Source of the DNA: an uncultured Methanosarcinaceae archaeon | GTDB lineage: Archaea; Halobacteriota; Methanosarcinia; Methanosarcinales; Methanosarcinaceae | Reading direction: 5' to 3' | Assembly: GCA_963847185.1 (NCBI GenBank) | Contig: CAWJYV010000008.1 | Location: 192,001-256,000, forward strand | Length of the DNA: 64,000 bases | Shown here: positions 28,429 to 39,873 of the stretch, piece after piece | How the letters are laid out: every line of letters starts with the position of its first letter | Position numbering within the stretch: the first letter of the stretch is position 1 | Notes under the pieces: generated by a model | Told to the model about the DNA's origin: nothing | What the model saw: only the letters and a program-made list of their open reading frames with translations | Databases searched by the model: none | Translations under genes and position numbers: made by a program

Positions 28429-29301
28429 TTGTTTGTGAAGCTGAAAACTAAAATTGTATTTATACTCCTTGCCCTGATGGTGGTCTTTGTATCGGGCTGT
28501 ATGGACGGAAAGAAAGAAGTTGTCCTGAATGAGCCCGGCAATGCCTCTAGCTATGAATTTGAAGTTTTTCAGAATCAATCATACAACCAGACTCTTGCAA
28601 ATACCACCACCTACTATCTTCTGGAAAACAAAGCAAGTGTACAGGTTGTAAATCTTGTAATAAATAAAAGCAAGCTTGAGATTTATCCTTCTGAATCTCT
28701 GGGCGGCGGTTCACAGGATGAGCCAATTAAAAATTTTGTACTTCTTGTAGACCCGGCAAATCAGACTTCAGGAAGCCTGGAGACTTTTAAAGAACTTTCC
28801 CTCAGAAATGAAACCTCAGATCTTAATTATACACTGACTCAGGAAATCAACCAGACTATGAGAATTATAAATCTGGAATTTGAAGAGCCTGTAACAGGTT
28901 TCATTGCGTATACCCTTGAGACTCCGAAAACTCAAGGTTTTGCTTTCATAAAACCTGATTCCGAATTTATTCGCGTTGTTCTCCCTCCGGGATATGTTAC
29001 TGGAAATAAGATATTCGGGGTAGCACGCCCTGAGCCTTTTAATGAAAGTTTTGATGAAAAAGGAAGGCAAACTCTCCTGTGGATCTCTTCGAAAATGGGA
29101 GAACGGGAAGGAACCATTCAGGTGAGGTATTATTCCGAGTCTGCCCCCCTGCTGTTCTTAGCAGCAATTGTAGTCCTGCTCTTTGGGGTTGTTCTGGTGC
29201 TTGCGCGTTATTCGAAAAGTAGGAAAGAACTCGAGGCTGTTAAAGGAGTTCTGGAACTCGAAAAGGAGTACGATAAGAAACAGCGAAGAGCCAAAAAATA
29301 A
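28429..29301 (+). CDS. DUF5803-like lipoprotein with C-terminal TM
   Basis: Lipobox VSGC, RVVLPPGY..GN.IFG motif, C-terminal TM and charged tail. Confidence 0.7.
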   Translation: MFVKLKTKIVFILLALMVVFVSGCMDGKKEVVLNEPGNASSYEFEVFQNQSYNQTLANTTTYYLLENKASVQVVNLVINKSKLEIYPSESLGGGSQDEPIKNFVLLVDPANQTSGSLETFKELSLRNETSDLNYTLTQEINQTMRIINLEFEEPVTGFIAYTLETPKTQGFAFIKPDSEFIRVVLPPGYVTGNKIFGVARPEPFNESFDEKGRQTLLWISSKMGEREGTIQVRYYSESAPLLFLAAIVVLLFGVVLVLARYSKSRKELEAVKGVLELEKEYDKKQRRAKK

Positions 29302-29422
29302 CTTTTAGTAATATCCTTTTTATCTCTTTTTCTTCATCTTATTTTTATTTTTTTAGAAGTAAATAGCTATTTATTGGCGTTTGCCCATATCCCTACTTGA
29401 TGATAATTTTTGGGGATACTCT

Positions 29423-30124
29423 ATGAAATCTCTGTTTTCCTCAACATCAGAATTGGAACCCGAATCAAAGTCGGAAGCTAATTCCGGATCAGAAGCTTTT
29501 ACTCCGGTAATAGGTTCTCTTATGCTTTTGCTAATAACGCTTGCGCTTGCGGGCACAATTGTCGCTGTTTTTGATCTCTCTGATGATAAGGCTGTTTTTC
29601 AGGCCTCTATGGCAAAAATCACCCTTGAATCCTGTGAAGGAGGACTCTATGGGTTTGGCCCGGAGGCTGAGAGAGCCAGGCTTGAAGAAAACAGAATTGT
29701 GCTTCTCCATGAGGGAGGGAGTTCTCTGCCCATTGATTTTGTTTCCATAACTATTTTCGGGTATGGAAATTCCTATCAGGGTCTTCCGGGACATGAGGGA
29801 AAATCGCTCAAAGGAAACATTTCTATATTCTATCTAGATCTTAATTCCCGGGGAAAAAATTCCGAATATCTGGCTCGAAATGGTGTGGTTCTTGAAGATG
29901 GTTTATGGGGAGCTGGAGAAAAACTGATACTCTATGGAAATGACAGTTCCGTGGGAAGTATTGATTCCAGTGTGAAAGTAAGTGTTGATGGAGCCGATAA
30001 TACCTCTGATAACTACGGTTTTCAAACAGGCTCAAAAATTACTCTAAAGGTTATTGACAGGGAAGGCAGATGCGTCCTCTCTGAGCAAGAAGTTGTTGTA
30101 ATACACCCAAATACGGATATCTGA
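29423..30124 (+). CDS. Archaeal type IV pilin-like protein
   Basis: SEA/FTPVIGSLMLLLITLALAGTI class III signal-like segment and LHEGG motif. Confidence 0.78.
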   Translation: MKSLFSSTSELEPESKSEANSGSEAFTPVIGSLMLLLITLALAGTIVAVFDLSDDKAVFQASMAKITLESCEGGLYGFGPEAERARLEENRIVLLHEGGSSLPIDFVSITIFGYGNSYQGLPGHEGKSLKGNISIFYLDLNSRGKNSEYLARNGVVLEDGLWGAGEKLILYGNDSSVGSIDSSVKVSVDGADNTSDNYGFQTGSKITLKVIDREGRCVLSEQEVVVIHPNTDI

Positions 30125-30995
30125 AAAGAGAAAGCGGTATGTTGTCTCAAAATCGTTCTTGTGTATATCGTTTAAAACGCTTGCCTGAAACTTCTGAAAG
30201 CAGCGTCGTATTAACATCTCAGTTGTCGTATACATAAGAAAATCCATTCATGTCGTTATCCTGTATTCTAAGACCTTTGGTATGCCTCGGGTGGATGATA
30301 CTACTCTACCTGTTAGTACAGATATACTGTATCTGAATTTGAAAATAAAGGCATAATTTCGTTTCCAGCTTTATCTTGGGGATAAATTCCGTATTTACAC
30401 TTCAAGACAGGCTATTTTCCAAATTTAACCTAATTAATCTTAGTTATTGCCTTTTTAAGCGCATTTTTTCCCTAGTAAGTTTTTATTGATCTAATTTGAG
30501 CTTTTATCCTAAATTCAAGTTACAGGATAATGTTGATAAATTATATCTTGAAATGACCCCCTGTCAATTAACAAGTTTGATTATAATGCCTGCTGGATTT
30601 GGTTCTGTATCTCAAGTTCTTAATTAATAACGAATTTAATAACTTATCCTGAGTCTCAAAAATTTACTGCTTTGAATTTACGTTCATTTTTCTGATTTAA
30701 ATCTACGTCTTTATAGGTTTTTATGGGGATTAATCGTTTTATTTTTGGCTATCTATATAATTAAGTGTACTATAAAGCTTATTTTATAAATTCATTCTTC
30801 TTAATCTCTCTATTTTTATAAGTATCCTTTTATTTAACCCGGCCAATTTCAGGAATGTCAACTGGCAATAGTCGGAAAGACAATTTGAATACAATAGAGT
30901 TATGCCTTTACCTCAGTTGTAGTCCTAAAGATATGAACTCTTAACATTGTATCAAAATATGCTAAGTTGAACAAAAATTGGAAGTGTCAATATTT

Positions 30996-31364
30996 ATGGG
31001 GAGACAGATATTTGACAAAATAAAAAGGGTCCTGTGCATGTTCACACTGGTCTTTTTTGTAATGTCATTGACAGCTGCATCAGTAAGTGCAGAGTCAGGT
31101 AATGCGAAGAATTGGAATGAACAGAAGACTACGTGGGATAAGAAGAAGACTATGTGGGATAAGGAGAAGACTACGTGGGAGAAAGAGAAGAAGAAATGGG
31201 GAGATGATAAAAATAAGTGGGACAAGAAAAAGAAATCCGGAAATGATTACAATAACTGGTTTAAGAAATATCAGGCATGGATGGCCAAATATAATGCTTG
31301 GATGGTCAAACATAAACAATTTGAGAGAAATTATAATAAATGGCAAAACATCCAGCTACAGTAA
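30996..31364 (+). CDS. Small secreted Trp/Lys heptad-repeat protein, copy 1
   Basis: Signal peptide ending SVSA and W every 7 residues; paralog of 32524-32865. Confidence 0.85.
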   Translation: MGRQIFDKIKRVLCMFTLVFFVMSLTAASVSAESGNAKNWNEQKTTWDKKKTMWDKEKTTWEKEKKKWGDDKNKWDKKKKSGNDYNNWFKKYQAWMAKYNAWMVKHKQFERNYNKWQNIQLQ

Positions 31365-31436
31365 TTGGAAAATACTGAATCTAACTGTAAAATGAACTGA
31401 ATAACGGTGTCTGTAAAACAGATAATTCCTTATGAA

Positions 31437-31536
31437 ATTTACGTGCTTGAGGACAAAAAGAAATAAAACTACCATAAGTTTCGTAATTTCGATTTATGGT
31501 GTTTTGCCCATGTTTTCTTACTTCAAGCGCGTAGAT
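31437..31536 (+). terminator. Long 3' inverted repeat after copy 1 (ATTTACGTGCTTGA ... TCAAGCGCGTAGAT)
   Basis: Arms at 31437-31450 and 31523-31536; a homologous stem follows copy 2. Confidence 0.6.
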
Positions 31537-31906
31537 ACTATCTACTTCATTTTTGTGTGCATTAATCAGTGTTGATGACTAACTTATCTCTAAAAACTTT
31601 CCTAAGCCCTCAGAGTATCTCTTCTCAAAATCCACAATAATCAAAGTTGCACTGGAATACCTCACTGCAGGCAGGGGTATGTTATGTCAGCGCACAGTTT
31701 GTAAAGGAACTATTAAAGTAAATTATTTTCATTTGGTTGTACGCTTCTTTTTCTCCATGGTTCCCGTGCTTTTCAACATGTCTTTGATATCAAAGTTGTC
31801 TAATCTTCTATAGTTCCAATGTAACCCCTATCATTCATATTTCACTTCCCATAACCGTTATTCGGAGCTGATCAATAACTCGCTGACACGATCTGTTTGT
31901 ACTGTA

Positions 31907-31946
31907 ATTCTATCTCTAGTACAAGGATTCTATCTTTAGTACAAGG
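31907..31946. repeat. 20-bp tandem duplication ATTCTATCTYTAGTACAAGG
   Basis: Two adjacent copies with one mismatch. Confidence 0.85.
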
Positions 31947-32523
31947 GTAATTAGAAATATGACTCAGTTATTGAAAACGGTTCTCGGAGAAATCTTCCAT
32001 CTCTACGGAGCTGTGGATATTCGAGTGAGATAAATGCACTTACAAATAATGTCCATGTATTTGAGTTATCCTTGATTGTCGCAGTTAATCCTCAATTTTA
32101 GGGCCATTCTCAAGTCTAAAAGTTATTTTTTGAATTTTAACTTTCTATCTTTTATAATGCTTTTAGAGAGGTTCGATAAGTATCGTTTTGTTTATTTAAG
32201 GTTTTAAGTATAATTTAACGCTTAATAAAGCTTTTTTTGTTAATTCAATCTCTTTTGTCTCTTTATTTATGTAAGTATTTTTATATTTAAGCCCGTTGAT
32301 TTCAGAAATGTCAGCCGAAGATGGTTGGCAAGGCAGCAGGACTTATGCTGTTGAATTGAGAAAACAATGGCATAATGGCATGAGTCTTAAAGAAGCCAAA
32401 TCAGATTATTTACGACATATCTGTTTGTGCTTTAGAGTTTCATCTGCATAAGTCCTGCCTGAATAAAGTAAGCCACCTCTGTAAAATCTGAATTAAATTA
32501 TACAAAAATAAGGAGTAGGATTT

Positions 32524-32865
32524 ATGAGTAAACTAATATTTGACAGAATGAAAAAGATTCTGTGTATGTTTACACTGGTCTTTTTTGTCGTGTCATTGAC
32601 AGCTGCGTCAGCAAGCGCAGGGTCAAGTGATGTTAAGAAATGGACTCAAGAAAAGGCAAAGTGGGATAAAGAGAAGACTAAGTGGGAAAAAGAGAAGAAA
32701 AAATGGGAAGAGGAGAAGAAAACATGGGATAAGAAACAGAAAACAGGATCCGATTACAGGGCATGGTTGAAGAACTATCAGGCATGGCTGACCAAATATA
32801 ACTCCTGGCATGTGAAATGCAAGCAGTTTGAAACAAAATACAATGAATGGAAAAACAGCCCTTGA
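32524..32865 (+). CDS. Small secreted Trp/Lys heptad-repeat protein, copy 2
   Basis: AGGAG RBS, signal peptide LCMFTLVFFVVSLTAASASA and a Trp heptad pattern. Confidence 0.88.
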   Translation: MSKLIFDRMKKILCMFTLVFFVVSLTAASASAGSSDVKKWTQEKAKWDKEKTKWEKEKKKWEEEKKTWDKKQKTGSDYRAWLKNYQAWLTKYNSWHVKCKQFETKYNEWKNSP

Positions 32866-32941
32866 GAGTTGAAACTGGAAAACACTGAGGAACTAACCGT
32901 AAAATAAGGAACTAACCGTAAAATAAACTGTACCCCCTATG

Positions 32942-33036
32942 GATTTACGCGCTTGAATAACAAAATAAAGCACTAGCTCTATTATAATATATTTGATGTC
33001 TTATGCTATTGTTTTATCGGTTCAAGCGCGTAAGTT
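32942..33036 (+). terminator. Long 3' inverted repeat after copy 2 (GATTTACGCGCTTGAA ... TTCAAGCGCGTAAGTT)
   Basis: Arms at 32942-32957 and 33021-33036, followed by T-rich sequence. Confidence 0.6.
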
Positions 33037-33919
33037 CTCCTCCGTTTTTATTGCCTTCTCTCCTCATTTATTTTTTTTGATTAATTTTCTCCGTAGATTT
33101 CCCTGGGATAATTCAAATATTTCCCTGCGGGTCTCTACCTGTTGTACTTTTCGGAATAAACTTCTGTTTTATCCCTTTTTCTTGGCCCTCTCATATTTTC
33201 ATTAATTTTATATATTAGAACTTATAATAATAGGTTCATATTAAGATACGAGAGTAAAACCAAAATTCATCAATATTTTTGTCCGATCAAGATTGTAAAT
33301 TCTATGGCAACTTTGGAAAAGAAACCATAATAGTATGGCATAATCTCTGATCAGGACAAATCAGGACAAGACTCGGAAGAAAGTCACCTGCATAAAAATT
33401 AGGAACTGCTATAATTAATGGACAATCAAAATAGTTGAATTAAAAATTAATCAAGTATTATGATTAATTACAGAGAAGCATGTTTCTTGAGAGAAAACTC
33501 ATTCTTCATCGATAATTTTATAAAATACCTGTTTATATATTTAGGGCGCAATAGTTCTGTCTTCCGTTTTTGTAGATATGTCGCGTTTTGCATGTCTGGA
33601 AGCTGCAAGTTTTGGCCGGTGGCTCGTCGGCCTAGAGGTCAATTAAGAAAGAGGAATCCTATCTCTCAAATGAGATGTTTCATCAATCTGAACCATGCTA
33701 AAATTGAGAAATTTCTATCAAAAAGTTACCTATAAATACAGTGTATCCTTCTGCGTTATGTTGAAATCTACATACTATACTTCCTTCAAATAACCAGGTT
33801 ATCTGACATTTGTTCTACCTGGGCTTTCTAATCTCTACCACTATACTCAAAAAAACATAACGCTGAAACCCGTGGCGGTGTATACATTGCATAAAAACTC
33901 ACAATTAGAGAAAGAAAAT

Positions 33920-34489
33920 ATGGAAGCAATCATGAAGCAGATAAAAGATCCTGAATTGCTTTCACAGATTGAAAAGGTCGTTCCCTTTCACGGCTTTCTG
34001 ACCTCCGGAGCATTAATCGGTATCCAGATGCTTAATATTGCAAAAAAGGTGCTTGATGTCAAGGAAGGGGAGCGCATATATGTGACCTCCGAGACGCAAA
34101 GCTGCATGCCTGATCCATTCCAGATTCTTGCAGGCGCTACAATCGGAAACGGCGGGTTGAAGATCAAAAACCTTGGAAAGATGGCGGTCACTGTAAACAA
34201 ACAGGCACCTGAAGGAGTGCACAGCGTAAAAGGTGTCAGAATTATCCTTGACCCTGAGAAGACAAAGGACTATCCCAAACTCCACGCCTGGTATCTGAAT
34301 ACTGAAAAGCTTCCACATGAGGAAGTTGTACCCATCCTCCTGGATGCAGGGGAAAAGGTGTATTCCTGGAAGCTTGTAGACTTAGAAGTTCCGGTCCGGA
34401 AAAAAAAGCGAATACATTCCTGTAAAAATTGCGGTGAGATGTTCATTCAACATGATAATGAGCTGCTGTGCGGCGGATGCACAGAATAA
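33920..34489 (+). CDS. fmdE: Formylmethanofuran dehydrogenase subunit E family protein
   Basis: FHGFLTSG, SETQSCMPD..Q...GATIGNG and a C-terminal CKNCGE...CGGC motif. Confidence 0.9.
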   Translation: MEAIMKQIKDPELLSQIEKVVPFHGFLTSGALIGIQMLNIAKKVLDVKEGERIYVTSETQSCMPDPFQILAGATIGNGGLKIKNLGKMAVTVNKQAPEGVHSVKGVRIILDPEKTKDYPKLHAWYLNTEKLPHEEVVPILLDAGEKVYSWKLVDLEVPVRKKKRIHSCKNCGEMFIQHDNELLCGGCTE

Positions 34490-34507
34490 AGTAAAGAGGT
34501 AAGCAAA

Positions 34508-35548
34508 ATGCAAGATGATATGCGATTGTCTGTCTTTGCAGAAAAAAAAGACAAGCAGCTGATCTATTTGCCTGAAAAATGCATTGGCTGCGGGACCTGC
34601 GTACAGGCATGCCCTAAAGGTAACCTGGCAGTGGGCGCTGTGGGAGCTATAGCAAGATGCCTCCTTGACGCTGATTTCCTGGAAATTAAAGAGAGTGAAA
34701 CCTGTCTTGTCTGTGGGATTTGTGCAAAAGTTTGTCCCACAGGAGCTCTTGAGTTAAAGCAGGAAGGAAAAACTCTTAATGATAATTCTTATCTTTTCAA
34801 GGCAATGAAACCAACTACAGTGAACGAAAATTGTGTTCATTGTGGGCTTTGTGAGGATATATGCCCCAGAGGATGCATCGAGGTAACAAGGGAAATTTCA
34901 GAAGATGGAAGTCTGAAGCTGGTCGGAAAGACAAATATTGATTCTGAATGCTGTGTCCACTGCGGCTGGTGTGCTGCAGTATGTCCGGTGAATGCAATTT
35001 CCGTAGAAAAACCCTTTGAAGGACGCTGGACCGTGGCCGAAGATGTTTGTCAGACCTGCCACACCTGTGTGGACGTCTGTCCTGCAAATGCTCTTTTCAA
35101 TAAAAAGGCTAAACCTGGAGAAAGAGTTGAAAAGATCACTCAGCGCCCTGATGCGTGCATTTACTGCGGAGCCTGTGCAGTTTCCTGTCCTGTAAATGCT
35201 ATTGATGTCAGAAAAACCGCAATTCTGCCGGAAGTGGAGAAAAAAGGCATTCTTGAGAAAAAGATCCTTGAAGCCCCTGTTCCTGAGGCTCTGCTTCGCA
35301 CCTGCCTGGAAACTGATGAAGACGCATGTCTGGGCTGTGGAAATTGTGTAATTGTCTGTCCTGTAAATGCCCTCTATAGCCGCGAACTTGCTGCGGGGTA
35401 CCTGAACGATATGGACGAAAAAGCTCTCCTTGAGGTTAAGAACGGAAAAATTTCTGTCGTAGACCAGGACTGCTGCGGAGCAGATGGAGCCTGCGCCATG
35501 ATCTGTCCTGTTAATGCGATCTGGCTCGTAAAAAGAGAGGTGAAATAA
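34508..35548 (+). CDS. fmdF: Polyferredoxin subunit F
   Basis: Eight CxxCxxCxxxCP-type motifs; position in the fmd operon. Confidence 0.92.
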   Translation: MQDDMRLSVFAEKKDKQLIYLPEKCIGCGTCVQACPKGNLAVGAVGAIARCLLDADFLEIKESETCLVCGICAKVCPTGALELKQEGKTLNDNSYLFKAMKPTTVNENCVHCGLCEDICPRGCIEVTREISEDGSLKLVGKTNIDSECCVHCGWCAAVCPVNAISVEKPFEGRWTVAEDVCQTCHTCVDVCPANALFNKKAKPGERVEKITQRPDACIYCGACAVSCPVNAIDVRKTAILPEVEKKGILEKKILEAPVPEALLRTCLETDEDACLGCGNCVIVCPVNALYSRELAAGYLNDMDEKALLEVKNGKISVVDQDCCGADGACAMICPVNAIWLVKREVK

Positions 35549-35549
35549 A

Positions 35550-37304
35550 ATGGCAGGAACAATTGCAGTCAAGAACGGATACGTCTTTGATCCCCTCAAT
35601 GAAATTAATGGGGAAATTATGGATATCTTCATCAGGGACGGAAAAGTTGTAAAAGAGCTTTCTGCGGCTGAACTTAAAAACTCAAAGGTTATTGATGCCT
35701 CTGGTATGACGGTTATGCCAGGAGGAGTTGACTCTCACTCTCACGTTGCAGGTGCAAAGGTCAATGCCGGCAGAATGATGCGCCCTGAAGACCACTATAA
35801 AGCAACTCTTCAGAAGACTTCACTCACTCATTCAGGTTCAGGCTATTCTGTCCCGTCTGTCTACAAACAGGGATACGATTATGCGGCAATGGGTTACACA
35901 ACAGTCTTTGAAGCCGCAGTTCCTCCTCTTGAAGCTCGCCACACCCACGAAGAGATGCGGGCAACTCCGCTTCTTGATATGGGCGGGTATCTGGTGCTTG
36001 GAAACAACTTCTTTTTGATGCGTTATTTAAGGGAAGGAGACATGGAGAAGGCTACTGCTTATGTGGCCTGGATGATGAAGACTCACAAGACATATGGGAT
36101 AAAATGTGTCAACCCTGCAGGAGTTGAAAACTGGGCATGGGGTAAAAATGTCAGTTCTCTTGATGAAGCTAACATCCATTTCGAAATTACCCCTAGAGAA
36201 GTCATTAAAGGACTTACCGAAATCAATGAACGGCTTGGAATGCCAATGCCTGTCCATCTTCACGCCAACAACCTGGGACACCCGGGATGCTATGCAATTA
36301 CAAAAGATTCCCTCAAAATCCCGGATGGGGTAAAGACCAGGCAAAACATGGATGTGGAATGGGCTGAAACCAAAATGGATCCTTCAAGGGACCGTTCCGT
36401 ATACCTCACTCACCTGATGTTCAACAGTTTCGCAGGTACCACCTGGGCAGACTGTGAGTCCGGAGTAAAAGACATTGCAGATTACATAAACAACAAAGAT
36501 CACGTAGTAATCGACAGTGGATGCACTCCTTTTGGTGAAGCAACAGTTATGACAGGCGACGGCCCTGCCATTCACGATCTTTACACACTTACAGGAAACA
36601 AGTGGTCGAACACTGATGTTGAAATGGAATGTGGCTCAGGTGTTATTCCATTTACCTATCTCAAATCCAACCCCGTACACAGCTTGCAGTGGGCAATGGG
36701 GCTTGAATGTCTCCTGCTTATCAACGACCCCTGGAAGACAATCATGACCACGGACAGTCCTAACGGTGGGCCTTTTACTAAATATCCTGAGGTTATGACC
36801 TGGCTTATGTCCGAAGCTTTCAGAAAGCAGACCTTCAGTGAGTGTCACAAATGGGCAAATGACAGAAGCGCACTCGGAGGCGTAAACAGGGAACTTTCTC
36901 TCTATGATCTTGCGATCCTTACAAGAGCCAATCCTGCTAAGACCATTGGAATGGTACACAGAAAAGGTTCTCTTGGTGTGGGCGCTGATGGAGACGTTAC
37001 TGTTTATAATATCAACCCGCAGCAGCTTGACGCAAACAACTACGAGGCTCTACTCCGTACTTTCAGGAAGGCAGAATACACCGTGAAAGACGGTGAAATA
37101 GTGGTTGTAAAAGGAGAGGTTGTGTCCCTGCCTGAAAAGCGGACTTACTATTCCGAAGTTCATGTAGAAAACGAGCGGGAAAAGGAAATGCTGGTCGATG
37201 TAAAGGATTGGTTCAGGTACTATACCCTGGGCTTTGCCAATTATCCGACTCCAGAAAAGTATCTGGAAAATCCGACTCCCATACAGGTTAATGGTGAGAG
37301 GTGA
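35550..37304 (+). CDS. fmdA: Formylmethanofuran dehydrogenase subunit A
   Basis: PGGVDSHSH, HLHANNLG and TTDSPNGGPF amidohydrolase motifs. Confidence 0.96.
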   Translation: MAGTIAVKNGYVFDPLNEINGEIMDIFIRDGKVVKELSAAELKNSKVIDASGMTVMPGGVDSHSHVAGAKVNAGRMMRPEDHYKATLQKTSLTHSGSGYSVPSVYKQGYDYAAMGYTTVFEAAVPPLEARHTHEEMRATPLLDMGGYLVLGNNFFLMRYLREGDMEKATAYVAWMMKTHKTYGIKCVNPAGVENWAWGKNVSSLDEANIHFEITPREVIKGLTEINERLGMPMPVHLHANNLGHPGCYAITKDSLKIPDGVKTRQNMDVEWAETKMDPSRDRSVYLTHLMFNSFAGTTWADCESGVKDIADYINNKDHVVIDSGCTPFGEATVMTGDGPAIHDLYTLTGNKWSNTDVEMECGSGVIPFTYLKSNPVHSLQWAMGLECLLLINDPWKTIMTTDSPNGGPFTKYPEVMTWLMSEAFRKQTFSECHKWANDRSALGGVNRELSLYDLAILTRANPAKTIGMVHRKGSLGVGADGDVTVYNINPQQLDANNYEALLRTFRKAEYTVKDGEIVVVKGEVVSLPEKRTYYSEVHVENEREKEMLVDVKDWFRYYTLGFANYPTPEKYLENPTPIQVNGER

Positions 37305-37308
37305 GGTC

Positions 37309-38169
37309 ATGACAGATGGAGTTCTTATTAATAAAGGTAAGATCGAAAGTGCTGGAGAAATGGAAGAAGTAGTTCTTATTCCTAAAAAAGAGATTGACAT
37401 TAAACTGGAAGCAGATGTTATAACTCCTGACTTCTTTGCAGGCAAGACTGCAGAAGAAATAGGAAGCCTATCTGTCTGGCAGGGTCCAAAGACCTATCCT
37501 CTTTCCGAGTTTTTTGAAGTAATCGGCAATGGAGGGAGTTCTGCAGCTCAGACTCTGATCCGTATAAAAGGCGATGCAATGCGGATCAAAAGAATCGGAG
37601 AAGGCATGAATGCAGGGAAAATTGAAATTGAAGGTTCTGCAGGCATGCATGTAGGTACCGGGATGAAAGGAGGCGAAATCGTTGTTTACGGAAACGTTGA
37701 CTCCTGGGCTGGCATGGAAATGACAGGTGGACTTCTGCACATTAAAGGCAACGCCGGAGATCATGTAGGCTGTGCTTATAGAGGTAAATGGCACGGAATG
37801 AAAGGTGGCCGCATCGTGATCGAAGGCTCGGCACGGCACCAGCTCGGAGGAGGCATGGACGGCGGCGAAATTATGGTAGAAGGCAATGTCGAAGGTTTCT
37901 GTGGAATTCGCCAGAACGGCGGGCTTATCGTAGTAAAAGGCAGAGCTCTTCGTGGTGTGGGCGCTGAAATGGCAGGCGGAACTATAGTTATCGGAGGAAA
38001 AATAGAGCGCTTCTCTCCTGGTTTCGAATATGTGTCCATGGAAAATAGCGTCAAGTCTGGTGAAGTCGAGCTAATCGGCGAATTCAAGAAGTTCATAGGG
38101 GACTATGCGATCAGCAAGCGGGCAAAAGGAGCTCTCTACGTAGCTGCAGACGCAAACCCGGAACTCTGA
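37309..38169 (+). CDS. fmdC: Formylmethanofuran dehydrogenase subunit C
   Basis: GXGXG beta-helix repeats (MKGGEI, MTGG, AYRG.W.GMKGG); ATG at 37309. Confidence 0.95.
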   Translation: MTDGVLINKGKIESAGEMEEVVLIPKKEIDIKLEADVITPDFFAGKTAEEIGSLSVWQGPKTYPLSEFFEVIGNGGSSAAQTLIRIKGDAMRIKRIGEGMNAGKIEIEGSAGMHVGTGMKGGEIVVYGNVDSWAGMEMTGGLLHIKGNAGDHVGCAYRGKWHGMKGGRIVIEGSARHQLGGGMDGGEIMVEGNVEGFCGIRQNGGLIVVKGRALRGVGAEMAGGTIVIGGKIERFSPGFEYVSMENSVKSGEVELIGEFKKFIGDYAISKRAKGALYVAADANPEL

Positions 38170-38179
38170 GGTGAGAGGC

Positions 38180-38569
38180 ATGGAAGTATTACTCATTACC
38201 GGAAGTACAATTGATGAAGGAAGACTTGCCAAAGGTGGGGATAAATTCACGAATGACTACACTATGGAGTGTGGGTGCTGCTGGATTTCTCCTAGCGATT
38301 TCGTGTCACTTTGTTCTCCTGATAAAGTAAAAGTAACAAGTGGGAATAGAAAACATTCGATTGCTGTTTACACAAAGTGCACTGATTCAGTCCGGCCAGG
38401 ACAGGTGTTCATGCCAAGAGCTATCTGGTCAAATGTTGTCACTGACCCCGATACTCTCTCAACCGGTTCCCCTCTCTATAAGGGTATTCCCGTAACAATT
38501 GAGCCCACAGATGAAGAGGTTCTCAGCGCCGAAGATGTAGTGTTGAAAGTTTATCTCGGAGGGCAGTAA
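38180..38569 (+). CDS. fmdD: Formylmethanofuran dehydrogenase subunit D
   Basis: LITGSTIDEG, GQVFMP..WSN and TGSPLYKG motifs. Confidence 0.95.
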   Translation: MEVLLITGSTIDEGRLAKGGDKFTNDYTMECGCCWISPSDFVSLCSPDKVKVTSGNRKHSIAVYTKCTDSVRPGQVFMPRAIWSNVVTDPDTLSTGSPLYKGIPVTIEPTDEEVLSAEDVVLKVYLGGQ

Positions 38570-38571
38570 GT

Positions 38572-39873
38572 ATGATTTACAAAAACATAGTTTGTCCTGT
38601 TTGCGGGGCAGCCTGCGATGATATCCAGGTTGAATTCGGGGACGGGAAGATTGAAGCTAGAAATGCATGTAAAATGGGGAATGCAAAATTTCAGGAAGTC
38701 ATAAGTTCCCACAGGCTCAGGCAGCCCCTTGTAAAAGCTGAGGGAAAACTGACTCCTGCAGCCTGGGACGAAGCTCTTGAGAAAGCTGCTGATATCCTTG
38801 TTTCGGCAAAGCGTCCTTTGCTTTTCATGGGAAGTGAAACTTCCTGTGAAGCGCATGAAGTAGGGCTCAAGATAGGGGAATATCTGGGTGCGCTTGTTGA
38901 CTCCAATGCTACCATCTGCCACGGGCCAACAGCTATGGGAATCCAGGAATCCGGTAAAGTCGGTGCAACCGAAGGTCAGAAGAAAAACAGGGGAGATCTC
39001 ATAGTCTACTGGGGTACAAATCCTCTTGAATCCATGCCCAGGCAAATGTCCAGGTATGGAGTTTTCCCAAGAGGTTACTGGACCAAACGCGGACGTTTTG
39101 ACAGGACAGTTATCACTGTGGATCCAAGAAAAACTCCAACAACCGAAGCTTCAGACCTGCACGTGCAGCTTAAACCCAATTCAGATTATGAACTGATAAG
39201 TGCACTTCTTACCCTGCTCCACGGGAAAACTCCGCACCCCTCAGTAGAAGAGATCACAGGAGTCCCCATCTCTGTCATGGAAGAAATGCTCGATATGATG
39301 AAAAACTGCAACTTCGGAGCCATTTCAGTGGGTCTTGGCCTTTCCTCATCTATCGGAAAGCACAGGAACGCCGAAATTGCCATGAACCTCGTAAAGGAAC
39401 TGAACAATTATGCCAAGTTCACCCTTGGAGCTCTTCGCGGTCACTGTAACGTCGCAGGTTTCAATCAGGTCGCTTCTTACATGTACGGATATCCTTTCGG
39501 ACTTGACTTCATGCGCGGAGTCCCGCGTTACAACCCCGGAGAATTCACAACCGTGGATGTACTCCGAGAAAAGGACGTGGATGCAGCCTTTGTGATGTGT
39601 GCTGATCTTGTCTGCCATATTCCTGCTGACTGTGCAACTTACCTTGGAAAAATCCCTATGGTCTGCCTGGACATTGCTCCCTGCCCGACCACAGCTGCCT
39701 CAGACGTCGTGCTTCCTGGAGTTATTGACGCCATGGAATGTGACGGAACCTTCTACAGGCTCGATGACGTGGCAGTTCACTTTGAACCTTTCACGACTTC
39801 GCCCTTCGAGTATACAAAGAGCAATGAAGATACCTTAAAACAGCTCTTTGAGAAGATTAAGGCAAGGAAGTAA
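38572..39873 (+). CDS. fmdB: Formylmethanofuran dehydrogenase subunit B (molybdopterin subunit)
   Basis: CPVCGAACDD, ICHGP and LRGHCNVAG motifs; the EFACDB order is typical of the Methanosarcina Mo enzyme. Confidence 0.96.
   Translation: MIYKNIVCPVCGAACDDIQVEFGDGKIEARNACKMGNAKFQEVISSHRLRQPLVKAEGKLTPAAWDEALEKAADILVSAKRPLLFMGSETSCEAHEVGLKIGEYLGALVDSNATICHGPTAMGIQESGKVGATEGQKKNRGDLIVYWGTNPLESMPRQMSRYGVFPRGYWTKRGRFDRTVITVDPRKTPTTEASDLHVQLKPNSDYELISALLTLLHGKTPHPSVEEITGVPISVMEEMLDMMKNCNFGAISVGLGLSSSIGKHRNAEIAMNLVKELNNYAKFTLGALRGHCNVAGFNQVASYMYGYPFGLDFMRGVPRYNPGEFTTVDVLREKDVDAAFVMCADLVCHIPADCATYLGKIPMVCLDIAPCPTTAASDVVLPGVIDAMECDGTFYRLDDVAVHFEPFTTSPFEYTKSNEDTLKQLFEKIKARK

Follow-up and report, generated by a model that had tools for sequence, protein, structure and literature searches.

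A predicted family of secreted, cationic two-helix hairpins with an aromatic seam, found in one genus of methanogenic archaea

Coiled coils whose heptads carry an aromatic core have been engineered, i.e., the Trp- and Phe-substituted variants of E. coli Lpp-56 (1t8z, 2guv) and the peptide CC-Type2-(YaFd)4 (7boa). According to the accessible part of a preprint, the Lpp variants form parallel pentamers and the Y-a/F-d peptide an antiparallel tetramer, and aromatic residues take less than 10% of the core positions of natural coiled coils (bioRxiv 10.1101/2021.02.01.429152). Here, we analyzed a window of 64,000 nucleotides from an uncultured Methanosarcinaceae archaeon (contig C8:192001-256000 of genome G000; positions given below without a contig are window positions), in which two genes encode small proteins, copy 1 and copy 2, likewise made of heptads with an aromatic core. 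Very probably, these proteins are antiparallel two-helix coiled-coil hairpins with an aromatic seam, belonging to multi-copy paralogues of one genus. The engineered peptides are man-made single helices, whereas this family is natural and would consist of putatively secreted, covalent hairpins. Its second helix (helix 2) follows the pattern of CC-Type2-(YaFd)4, with Tyr at position a and Trp or Phe at position d; its first helix (helix 1), unlike the engineered aromatic cores, has Trp at a only and an acidic residue at d. Our best overall explanation, to which we give a probability of about 0.4, is that these genus-limited, secreted, cationic hairpins bind a polyanionic coat or matrix.

Two other groups of small proteins invite comparison. 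Trp/Lys-rich cationic antimicrobial peptides (indolicidin-like peptides, designed KW repeats) are mostly shorter than 50 residues and membrane-amphipathic. The family shares with them a high Lys and Trp content, a positive charge, and putative secretion; unlike them, its members would be rods of 81-107 residues, with one non-polar residue per helix 1 heptad. WXG100 proteins have a W-x-G turn, lack a signal for the general secretion (Sec) pathway, and use bacterial type VII export. The WXG100/ESAT-6-like proteins (EsxEF, 4i0x) are likewise small hairpins of two helices, about 100 residues long, and are secreted. However, we rejected membership in this group: the turn of the family reads S/H-G-N/D/K-D/E-Y (e.g., K-S-G-N-D-Y, K-H-G-N-D-Y), the signal is of the Sec type, and the host is an archaeon. 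Moreover, Pfam gave no WXG100 match at E ≤1.

Two tandem genes and their aromatic seam

The two genes and their parts are the following (all on the + strand):

30996-31364, +: copy 1 gene, 122 residues and a stop codon, read from an ATG
30996-31091, +: copy 1 signal peptide, residues 1-32; basic n-region, hydrophobic core, and A-S-V-S-A followed by Glu, with a putative cleavage site
31098-31226, +: copy 1 helix 1, mature residues 3-45, predicted by AlphaFold2 and heptad tally; six W-x6 heptads, consensus W-D-N-E-K-K-K
31227-31241, +: copy 1 turn, mature residues 46-50, K-K-S-G-N, directly before the D-Y that opens helix 2
31242-31358, +: copy 1 helix 2, mature residues 51-89, predicted by AlphaFold2 and heptad tally; five Y/H-x-x-W/F-x-x-x heptads
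32524-32865, +: copy 2 gene, 113 residues and a stop codon; plan of copy 1 minus one helix 1 heptad
32524-32619, +: copy 2 signal peptide
32620-32862, +: copy 2 mature part
31123-31200, 31266-31315, and 32648-32745, +: 21-nucleotide (nt) DNA repeats, in helix 1 of copy 1, helix 2 of copy 1, and copy 2, respectively

Both same-strand open reading frames (ORFs) lie where a previous sequence-only reading of this DNA had placed them, and the residue strings that it quoted match the translations. An alternative start of copy 1, a TTG at 30978, would add 6 residues; the ATG is preferred because the orthologues begin at the ATG-equivalent MGKQ. By BLASTP, the two proteins share 70 identities over 118 positions (59%, E 8e-32), with a single gap of 7 residues that corresponds to a 21-nt gap in the DNA. 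Copy 2 is thus one heptad shorter, as had been claimed. Their signal peptides agree at 23 of 32 residues or, counting only the hydrophobic and cleavage regions, at 18 of 20. Both copies follow one general plan: a basic N-terminus, a hydrophobic stretch, and A-S-x-S-A; then 5-6 W heptads, which read W-D/N/E-x-E/D-K-K/R-K; a short turn; and five Y/H-x-x-W/F-x-x-x heptads. As tandem paralogues, they belong to a multi-copy family that was found in a single genus. Since the heptads are encoded by 21-nt tandem repeats (76-89% matches), whole heptads can be gained or lost and the arm length drifts by heptads. The spacer that separates the two genes contains another tandem repeat, 2 copies of 20 nt with 95% matches (31907-31946).

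Heptads, composition, and glycosylation sequons were tallied on 24 family members from 20 genomes of the genus of the window. In copy 1, six consecutive Trp stand at an exact spacing of 7 residues, and a run of at least six was reached in only 4 of 200,000 composition-preserving shuffles of the mature sequence. Over the 24 members, helix 1 carries Trp at position a in 126 of 150 heptads, Glu or Asp at d in 110, and Lys or Arg at e in 126. In helix 2, position a is Tyr or His in 113 of 116 heptads (Tyr 95, His 18) and position d is Trp or Phe in as many (Trp 101, Phe 12). There are about three aromatics per heptad over 5-7 heptads. By tally and shuffles, the core residues thus show the heptad spacing of a coiled coil. 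The two helices differ by at most one heptad in 21 of the 24 members; some members of subfamily B (the window pair belongs to subfamily A) have extra N-terminal heptads on helix 1.

This tally bears out the K-x-x-W repeat of helix 1 and the Y-x-x-W repeat of helix 2 that had been read from the window copies, across all members. The near-absence of Leu, Ile, and Val and the strong positive charge hold as well: mature copy 1 has 3 such residues out of 90, with 10 Trp, 4 Tyr, 2 Phe, 23 Lys, and a net charge of +12 (+10 for copy 2). In the 24 mature sequences, the net charge always lies between +4 and +20, about a quarter of the residues are Lys, and there are 5-13 Trp; Cys is missing from 19 of them, and no redox cofactor motifs were found. 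The idea of a core made of Trp only, on the other hand, has to be corrected, as Trp lines helix 1 while helix 2 contributes Tyr/His plus Trp/Phe. The label "Trp-zipper" is therefore a loose one: it suits helix 2, with aromatics at both core positions, and does not suit helix 1, with one Trp per heptad. Indeed, a Trp zipper of the Lpp-56 type has Trp at both a and d, and we rejected this assignment in view of the a/d pairs of the family (W with E/D on helix 1, Y/H with W/F on helix 2).

Some homologues of the same genus, equally uncharacterised, share the signal peptide, the turn, and the helix 2 type, with Leu or Ile instead of Trp at the helix 1 heptad position (Leu-variants L031, P0001, P0020). 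Including the N-terminal heptads of L032 and L036, it is Leu, Ile, or Phe that replaces Trp in such relatives. Trp therefore occupies a classical core position, and by this comparison the Trp column would not by necessity be a special functional site. Outside the seam, nearly all residues are Lys, Arg, Asn, Asp, and Glu, which makes a very hydrophilic and strongly cationic rod.

The sequence-only reading had proposed a helical hairpin, and structure prediction agrees with it. AlphaFold2, given the mature alignment of the 24 sequences, modeled copy 1 as a helix over residues 3-45, a 5-residue turn, and a helix over residues 51-89, with a mean predicted local distance difference test score (pLDDT) of 90.7 and a predicted template modeling score (pTM) of 0.72. 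A subfamily B paralogue on contig C10, 37% identical to copy 1 in its mature part and rich in Asp, Asn, and Gly, was predicted with helices at 6-50 and 59-106 (pLDDT 91.7, pTM 0.74). In both models of these distant paralogues, two long helices, predicted to pack antiparallel as in a coiled coil, are joined by a turn of 5-8 residues.

As for known structures, a Foldseek search of the PDB with the AlphaFold2 model gave nothing at E ≤0.001; the weak matches have E of at least 3.7. The best of them are antiparallel coiled coils, with a TM-score normalised to the query (TMq) of 0.65-0.69 (0.65 for Kif21A). An independent fold search, which treats Z values under about 13 as uninformative in the case of helical proteins, reached Z of at most 10.0, with 75-90 residues aligned, to Rad50 arms, prefoldin, designed hairpins, EsxEF (Z 9.2 to 4i0x_B), and others. 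Generic hairpins such as Kif21A (5nfd), Rad50/SMC arms, prefoldin, Rbl2p, and designed ones thus resemble the model in overall fold (TMq 0.65-0.69, Z 9-10). They differ from it in sequence (1-16% identity) and in their unrelated cellular roles and locations, and none has the aromatic seam as far as these comparisons show. The predicted fold would hence be a generic helical hairpin, with the seam as its unusual part.

We propose that the precursor would be exported by the Sec pathway and that the mature part, of 81-107 residues, would fold into an antiparallel hairpin with about 40-45 residues per arm. The seam would receive one Trp per heptad from position a of helix 1, and Tyr/His at a and Trp/Phe at d from helix 2. 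The Glu/Asp at d of helix 1, lying beside the Tyr/His column of helix 2, may form a ladder of polar-aromatic hydrogen bonds.

A putatively exported family of one genus

By inspection of the alignment, all 24 members begin with the elements of a Sec-type precursor (signal peptidase I), with a putative cleavage site: the start is rich in K/R, a hydrophobic core follows (in copy 1, residues 13-27), and the end reads A-S-V/A-S/N/G-A. F21, S24, S29, and A32 are invariant in this signal peptide. No C-terminal anchor, lipobox, or pilin-type signal was seen in family members, and we rejected an archaeal type IV pilin-like (class III) signal, since the hydrophobic stretch precedes the A-x-A and no cleavage motif stands before it. 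Moreover, N-glycosylation sequons (N-x-S/T) seem to be avoided. The 24 mature sequences, with 322 Asn and 166 Ser/Thr, contain a single one. Within-sequence shuffles expect 22.3 +/- 4.2 (0 of 5000 at one or fewer) and column-preserving shuffles 6.7 +/- 2.2 (23 of 5000), figures to be taken as suggestive and not as a probability. This avoidance would fit exposure to the extracellular glycosylation machinery and, together with the conserved A-S-x-S-A signal end, makes the secretion that had been supposed plausible.

Eight ORFs of the genome carry this same signal peptide (M-G/R-K-Q-x-F-D-R-x-K-K-x-L-C, then a hydrophobic core), namely the two window genes plus C1:242593(+), C1:198535(-), C8:1027096(-), C8:1028226(-), C8:77213(-), and C8:75860(-). 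Their mature parts are unrelated and mostly of low complexity, including G/S/A-rich repeats, D-D-L-G-I-G repeats, a G/C/W-rich peptide, and a 552-residue protein with a repeat-laden C-terminal half. The shared signal peptide looks like a reused export cassette.

The genome contains five full-length paralogues of the family: the two of the window, two near-identical copies on contigs C10 and C7, which sit in an 889-bp duplication, and one more on C10. Weak matches at C8:1113125-1113238(+) and C7:248084-248170(-) contain in-frame TAG codons. The pairwise ratio of nonsynonymous to synonymous substitution rates (dN/dS) lies between 0.10 and 0.30 for 17 pairs out of 18; the remaining pair has 0.63. 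Judged by these ratios, the family genes are real coding sequences under purifying selection.

With a profile of the mature part alone, we found the family in 31 of 39 other genomes of the genus (1-7 copies each) and in none of 261 genomes that represent 47 other genera of the class. An earlier profile, extended over the signal peptide, had matched 32 of 34 genomes of the genus; it also gave three weak matches in two other genera, which the mature-only profile did not reproduce. In five of the genus genomes without the family, orthologues of a neighboring gene are clearly more divergent (35-55% identity); these five, of the eight family-free genomes, are probably deeper-branching species. In metagenomes, 18 loci were found, and the same plan appeared in all 14 that were inspected. 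One metagenomic locus, L082, encodes a 200-residue long form whose helix 2, with about a dozen Y/F/W heptads, far exceeds helix 1. Viral contigs gave no relatives.

The mature region had not been recognised as any known family, and our comparisons with curated families and solved structures agree. In Pfam, the best match was DUF3450 (PF11932), at 11.6 and 23.0 bits for a gathering cut-off of 32.6; we rejected this sub-threshold assignment, which extends over the charged helix and a portion of the signal peptide and which we attribute to composition. NCBIfam, PHROGs, and PADLOC gave nothing at or near cut-off, and the ESM Atlas no usable match. A profile search of PDB sequences returned six weak matches (best E 0.026), the second and third being the Phe-substituted Lpp 2guv (E 0.11) and the designed peptide 7boa (E 0.2), which are not significant. 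A word-index homology search found one match, the Leu-variant P0001. An exact look-up of 10 family sequences in a collection of 15 billion proteins found none, and we regard as chance a 23-residue match in a Bacteroidales metagenome-assembled genome, obtained with a single-protein query of genome contigs. We found no paper describing the family in the accessible literature, where supplementary expression or proteome tables may still mention it.

With HMMER, the mature profile had 50 matches at E ≤1e-3 among 1.84 billion representatives. Of the 12 that were inspected, 4 are small family-like proteins (P0012, P0016, P0018, P0020) and 8 are unrelated low-complexity repeat tracts, e.g., F-D-R-E-R-K-P and G-G-Y-N-S-W-S repeats, or W-D-x-E-M-R and W-E-S-S-H-T-T heptads. 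The unrelated proteins P0008, P0035, and P0037 contain long Trp-heptad tracts (W-D-x-E-M-R-x, W-E-S-S-H-T-T, W-D/N-S-E-S-T-S) with neither an arm of the helix 2 type nor the family signal peptide. Repeats with Trp at every seventh residue therefore arise independently elsewhere.

Upstream blocks and neighboring genes

Upstream of the two genes, we noted the following elements (all on the + strand):

30827-30883, +: copy 1 putative promoter/leader block; TATA-like CTTTTATTTAA (30827-30837), AATTTCAGGAATGTCAAC (30845-30862), and ATAGTCGGAAAGACAA (30868-30883)
30980-30986, +: copy 1 Shine-Dalgarno-like motif, an imperfect GGAAGTG, 9 nt before the ATG
32280-32335, +: copy 2 putative promoter/leader block; TATA-like TTTATATTTAA (32280-32290), GATTTCAGAAATGTCAGC (32298-32315), and GTTGGCAAGGCA (32324-32335)
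32510-32515, +: copy 2 Shine-Dalgarno motif, AAGGAG, 8 nt before the ATG

We infer that the blocks contain a promoter and the transcript start. The block of copy 1 aligns with the upstream region of copy 2, with its TATA-like element and with conserved sequence where the transcript is expected to start, and so belongs to the duplicated unit. Of the 22 family genes examined, 9, from different subfamilies, have it 125-306 nt upstream of the ATG, and in the whole genome matches to its 16-mer with 0-1 mismatch occur only upstream of family genes. The conserved block (TATA-like element, AATTTCAGGAATGTCAAC, and ATAGTCGGCAAGACAA) is also present at C10:589476(-) and C7:799838(-). A similar one, at C7:396354-396378(-) and with 3 mismatches per motif, precedes at this single locus the gene (C7:395383-396306) of a 308-residue acidic, sequon-rich secreted protein to which Pfam assigns no family. 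A common regulator may use this conserved block as its operator. A conserved RNA element in the 5' leader was rejected (consensus fold of -2.7 kcal/mol, 0 compensatory pairs), and a promoter or operator acting at the DNA level is more likely. Rfam, scanned over 30100-33900, returned only far-sub-threshold noise of the microRNA or small RNA kind. A purine-rich ribosome-binding motif lies 6-12 nt before the ATG in all 22 family genes examined: GGAG in 16, GGGG in 5, and GGAAG in window copy 1.

The family genes are monocistronic, with their own predicted promoters and long flanking spacers. In subfamily A, the window pair stands between the genes of a DUF5803 protein and a pilin-N-like protein (28429-30124) on one side and fmdE on the other; this position holds 1, 3, 1, and 2 family copies in four other genomes. 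The upstream neighbors, i.e., the DUF5803 protein (290 residues) and a 247-residue protein (29381-30124) with a sub-threshold match to the archaeal type IV pilin N-terminal domain (Pilin_N), keep their place in these four other genomes. Downstream, the gene row at 33872-39873 looks by its Pfam matches like a formylmethanofuran dehydrogenase operon, with FmdE, polyferredoxin, and the amidohydrolase-type, GXGXG, and molybdopterin-binding subunits. In subfamily B, the hairpin gene, in 1-2 copies, is convergent to the gene of a protein of about 310 residues with a suggested membrane span and a C-terminal DUF7343 winged helix. This row, i.e., a DUF5996 protein, a secreted protein of about 110 residues with D-G-Y-D-N-G-Y-N-K-G repeats, the DUF7343 protein, and the convergent hairpin gene, is kept in 11 of the 12 loci fetched (L055-L065; L067, at C10:165389-170221). 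Since the positions are syntenic across the genus, the neighborhood shows vertical inheritance; it points to no functional partner, and the two subfamilies have no neighbor in common.

Possible roles of the hairpins

We propose that the rods, once outside the cell, would bind or cross-link polyanionic material of the envelope or matrix. Candidate ligands would be the acidic heteropolysaccharide layer that reportedly characterises Methanosarcina, the glycans of the surface layer (S-layer), or extracellular DNA. Binding would occur through the Lys/Arg-rich faces, and avidity may be added by the half-exposed aromatic seam or by self-association. We favor this polyanion-binding reading because of the putative export, the charge, a helix 1 without membrane-type amphipathicity, vertical inheritance under purifying selection, and the limit to one genus. 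A thick methanochondroitin layer is said to set Methanosarcina apart from other methanogens, in the accessible part of one article (PMC6962339). The phyletic limit of the family would parallel this coat if the genus of the window is Methanosarcina, as is probable from the formylmethanofuran dehydrogenase operon beside the pair and from the disaggregatase-associated domains of the genome. The function itself, i.e., binding or cross-linking of extracellular polyanions, is a tentative proposal drawn from sequence features.

Several points weigh against this reading. No conserved operon partner was found, and the neighbors differ between subfamilies A and B. The family is absent from 8 of the 39 genomes of the genus. 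Co-occurrence with the disaggregatase-associated PF08480, of which the window's genome has twelve domains, is non-discriminating, as it is present in 34 of 34 genomes of the genus, including family-free ones, and in 5 other genera. The AlphaFold2 models were built on a shallow alignment of idealised repeats, and the kinship of the sequences confounds the sequon depletion. Among the RNA runs listed, none contains the stretch, nor did we find proteomic data for it. Finally, an aromatic seam fully buried by self-association could not also contact ligands.

Other explanations account for part of the same evidence. A secreted antimicrobial or competition protein (an "archaeocin"), i.e., a cationic Lys/Trp-rich hairpin disturbing the anionic membranes of bacterial neighbors, would have the Sec signal, the small size, the net charge of +4 to +20, and the 10-13% Trp of the family, the composition of which resembles that of Trp/Lys-rich cationic peptides. 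The 1-7 diverging copies per genome and a signal peptide shared by eight ORFs, conserved while the mature parts vary, would fit such a role too. However, selection is purifying and not diversifying, and the genes keep stable syntenic positions, near which there are no genes for immunity, processing, or export. The mature part, with its 81-107 residues, exceeds typical Trp-rich peptides, and one non-polar residue per helix 1 heptad does not make a membrane-amphipathic helix. The accessible literature on methanogen archaeocins gave no such family, and we hold this role to be unlikely. It is also rather improbable that the hairpins are structural rods of the quasi-periplasm or surface, or chaperone-like proteins, which would bind acidic partner proteins (S-layer or secreted ones) and not polysaccharide. 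The fold matches to the coiled-coil arms of prefoldin, Skp, and MacA speak for it, at a generic level (Z ≤10.0, TMq ≤0.69) that any helical hairpin would reach and with Z in the uninformative range below about 13. So does the 308-residue acidic secreted protein with the same promoter architecture, a likeness limited to a single locus, where each motif has 3 mismatches.

Two further readings are far less probable. In the boldest option of the sequence-only reading, hairpins that self-assemble into fibers would carry electrons outside the cell without haem, along a stacked Trp/Tyr ladder. The density of about three aromatics per heptad over 5-7 heptads is in favor of such a conduit, and, in the accessible part of the preprint cited above (bioRxiv 10.1101/2021.02.01.429152), engineered coiled coils with aromatics at a and d form higher oligomers. 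However, surfaces with a net charge of +4 to +20 should repel each other in the absence of a polyanion, there are no redox cofactor motifs, and 19 of the 24 mature sequences are devoid of Cys. Radical hopping along Trp/Tyr requires far higher potentials than those at which methanogens take up electrons, which also counts against this very unlikely reading. Just as speculative is a combination of both ideas, in which rods concentrated on a polyanionic coat would assemble side by side or end to end, their Trp/Tyr ladders forming a haem-free, charge-carrying or redox-buffering layer that would aid extracellular electron uptake. Least probable of all is that the ORFs are chance products of 21-nt tandem-repeat DNA and not functional proteins. 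The coding regions do hold such repeats, and unrelated W- or F-heptad tracts occur in other proteins. However, dN/dS is well below 1, the positions are syntenic across species, and the two-part architecture, the signal peptide, and the ribosome-binding site are conserved in the 24 genomic members, the first two also in the 14 metagenomic members examined.

All-aromatic coiled-coil cores are otherwise known from engineered peptides, and this family would be a natural example maintained by evolution. As it is small, repetitive, and easily expressed, it may serve as a model for the packing of a Trp/Tyr seam and for the tolerance of whole-heptad gain and loss. It would also add an uncharacterised, strongly cationic secreted family to an environmentally important methanogen genus, probably Methanosarcina, the only one to carry it among the genomes searched. 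At the level of proteins, little is understood of the surface chemistry of Methanosarcina (aggregation, matrix, interspecies electron transfer). Should the family bind or organise the cell coat, it would provide a genetic handle on aggregation; should it kill bacteria instead, it would be a first class of antimicrobial proteins from methanogens.

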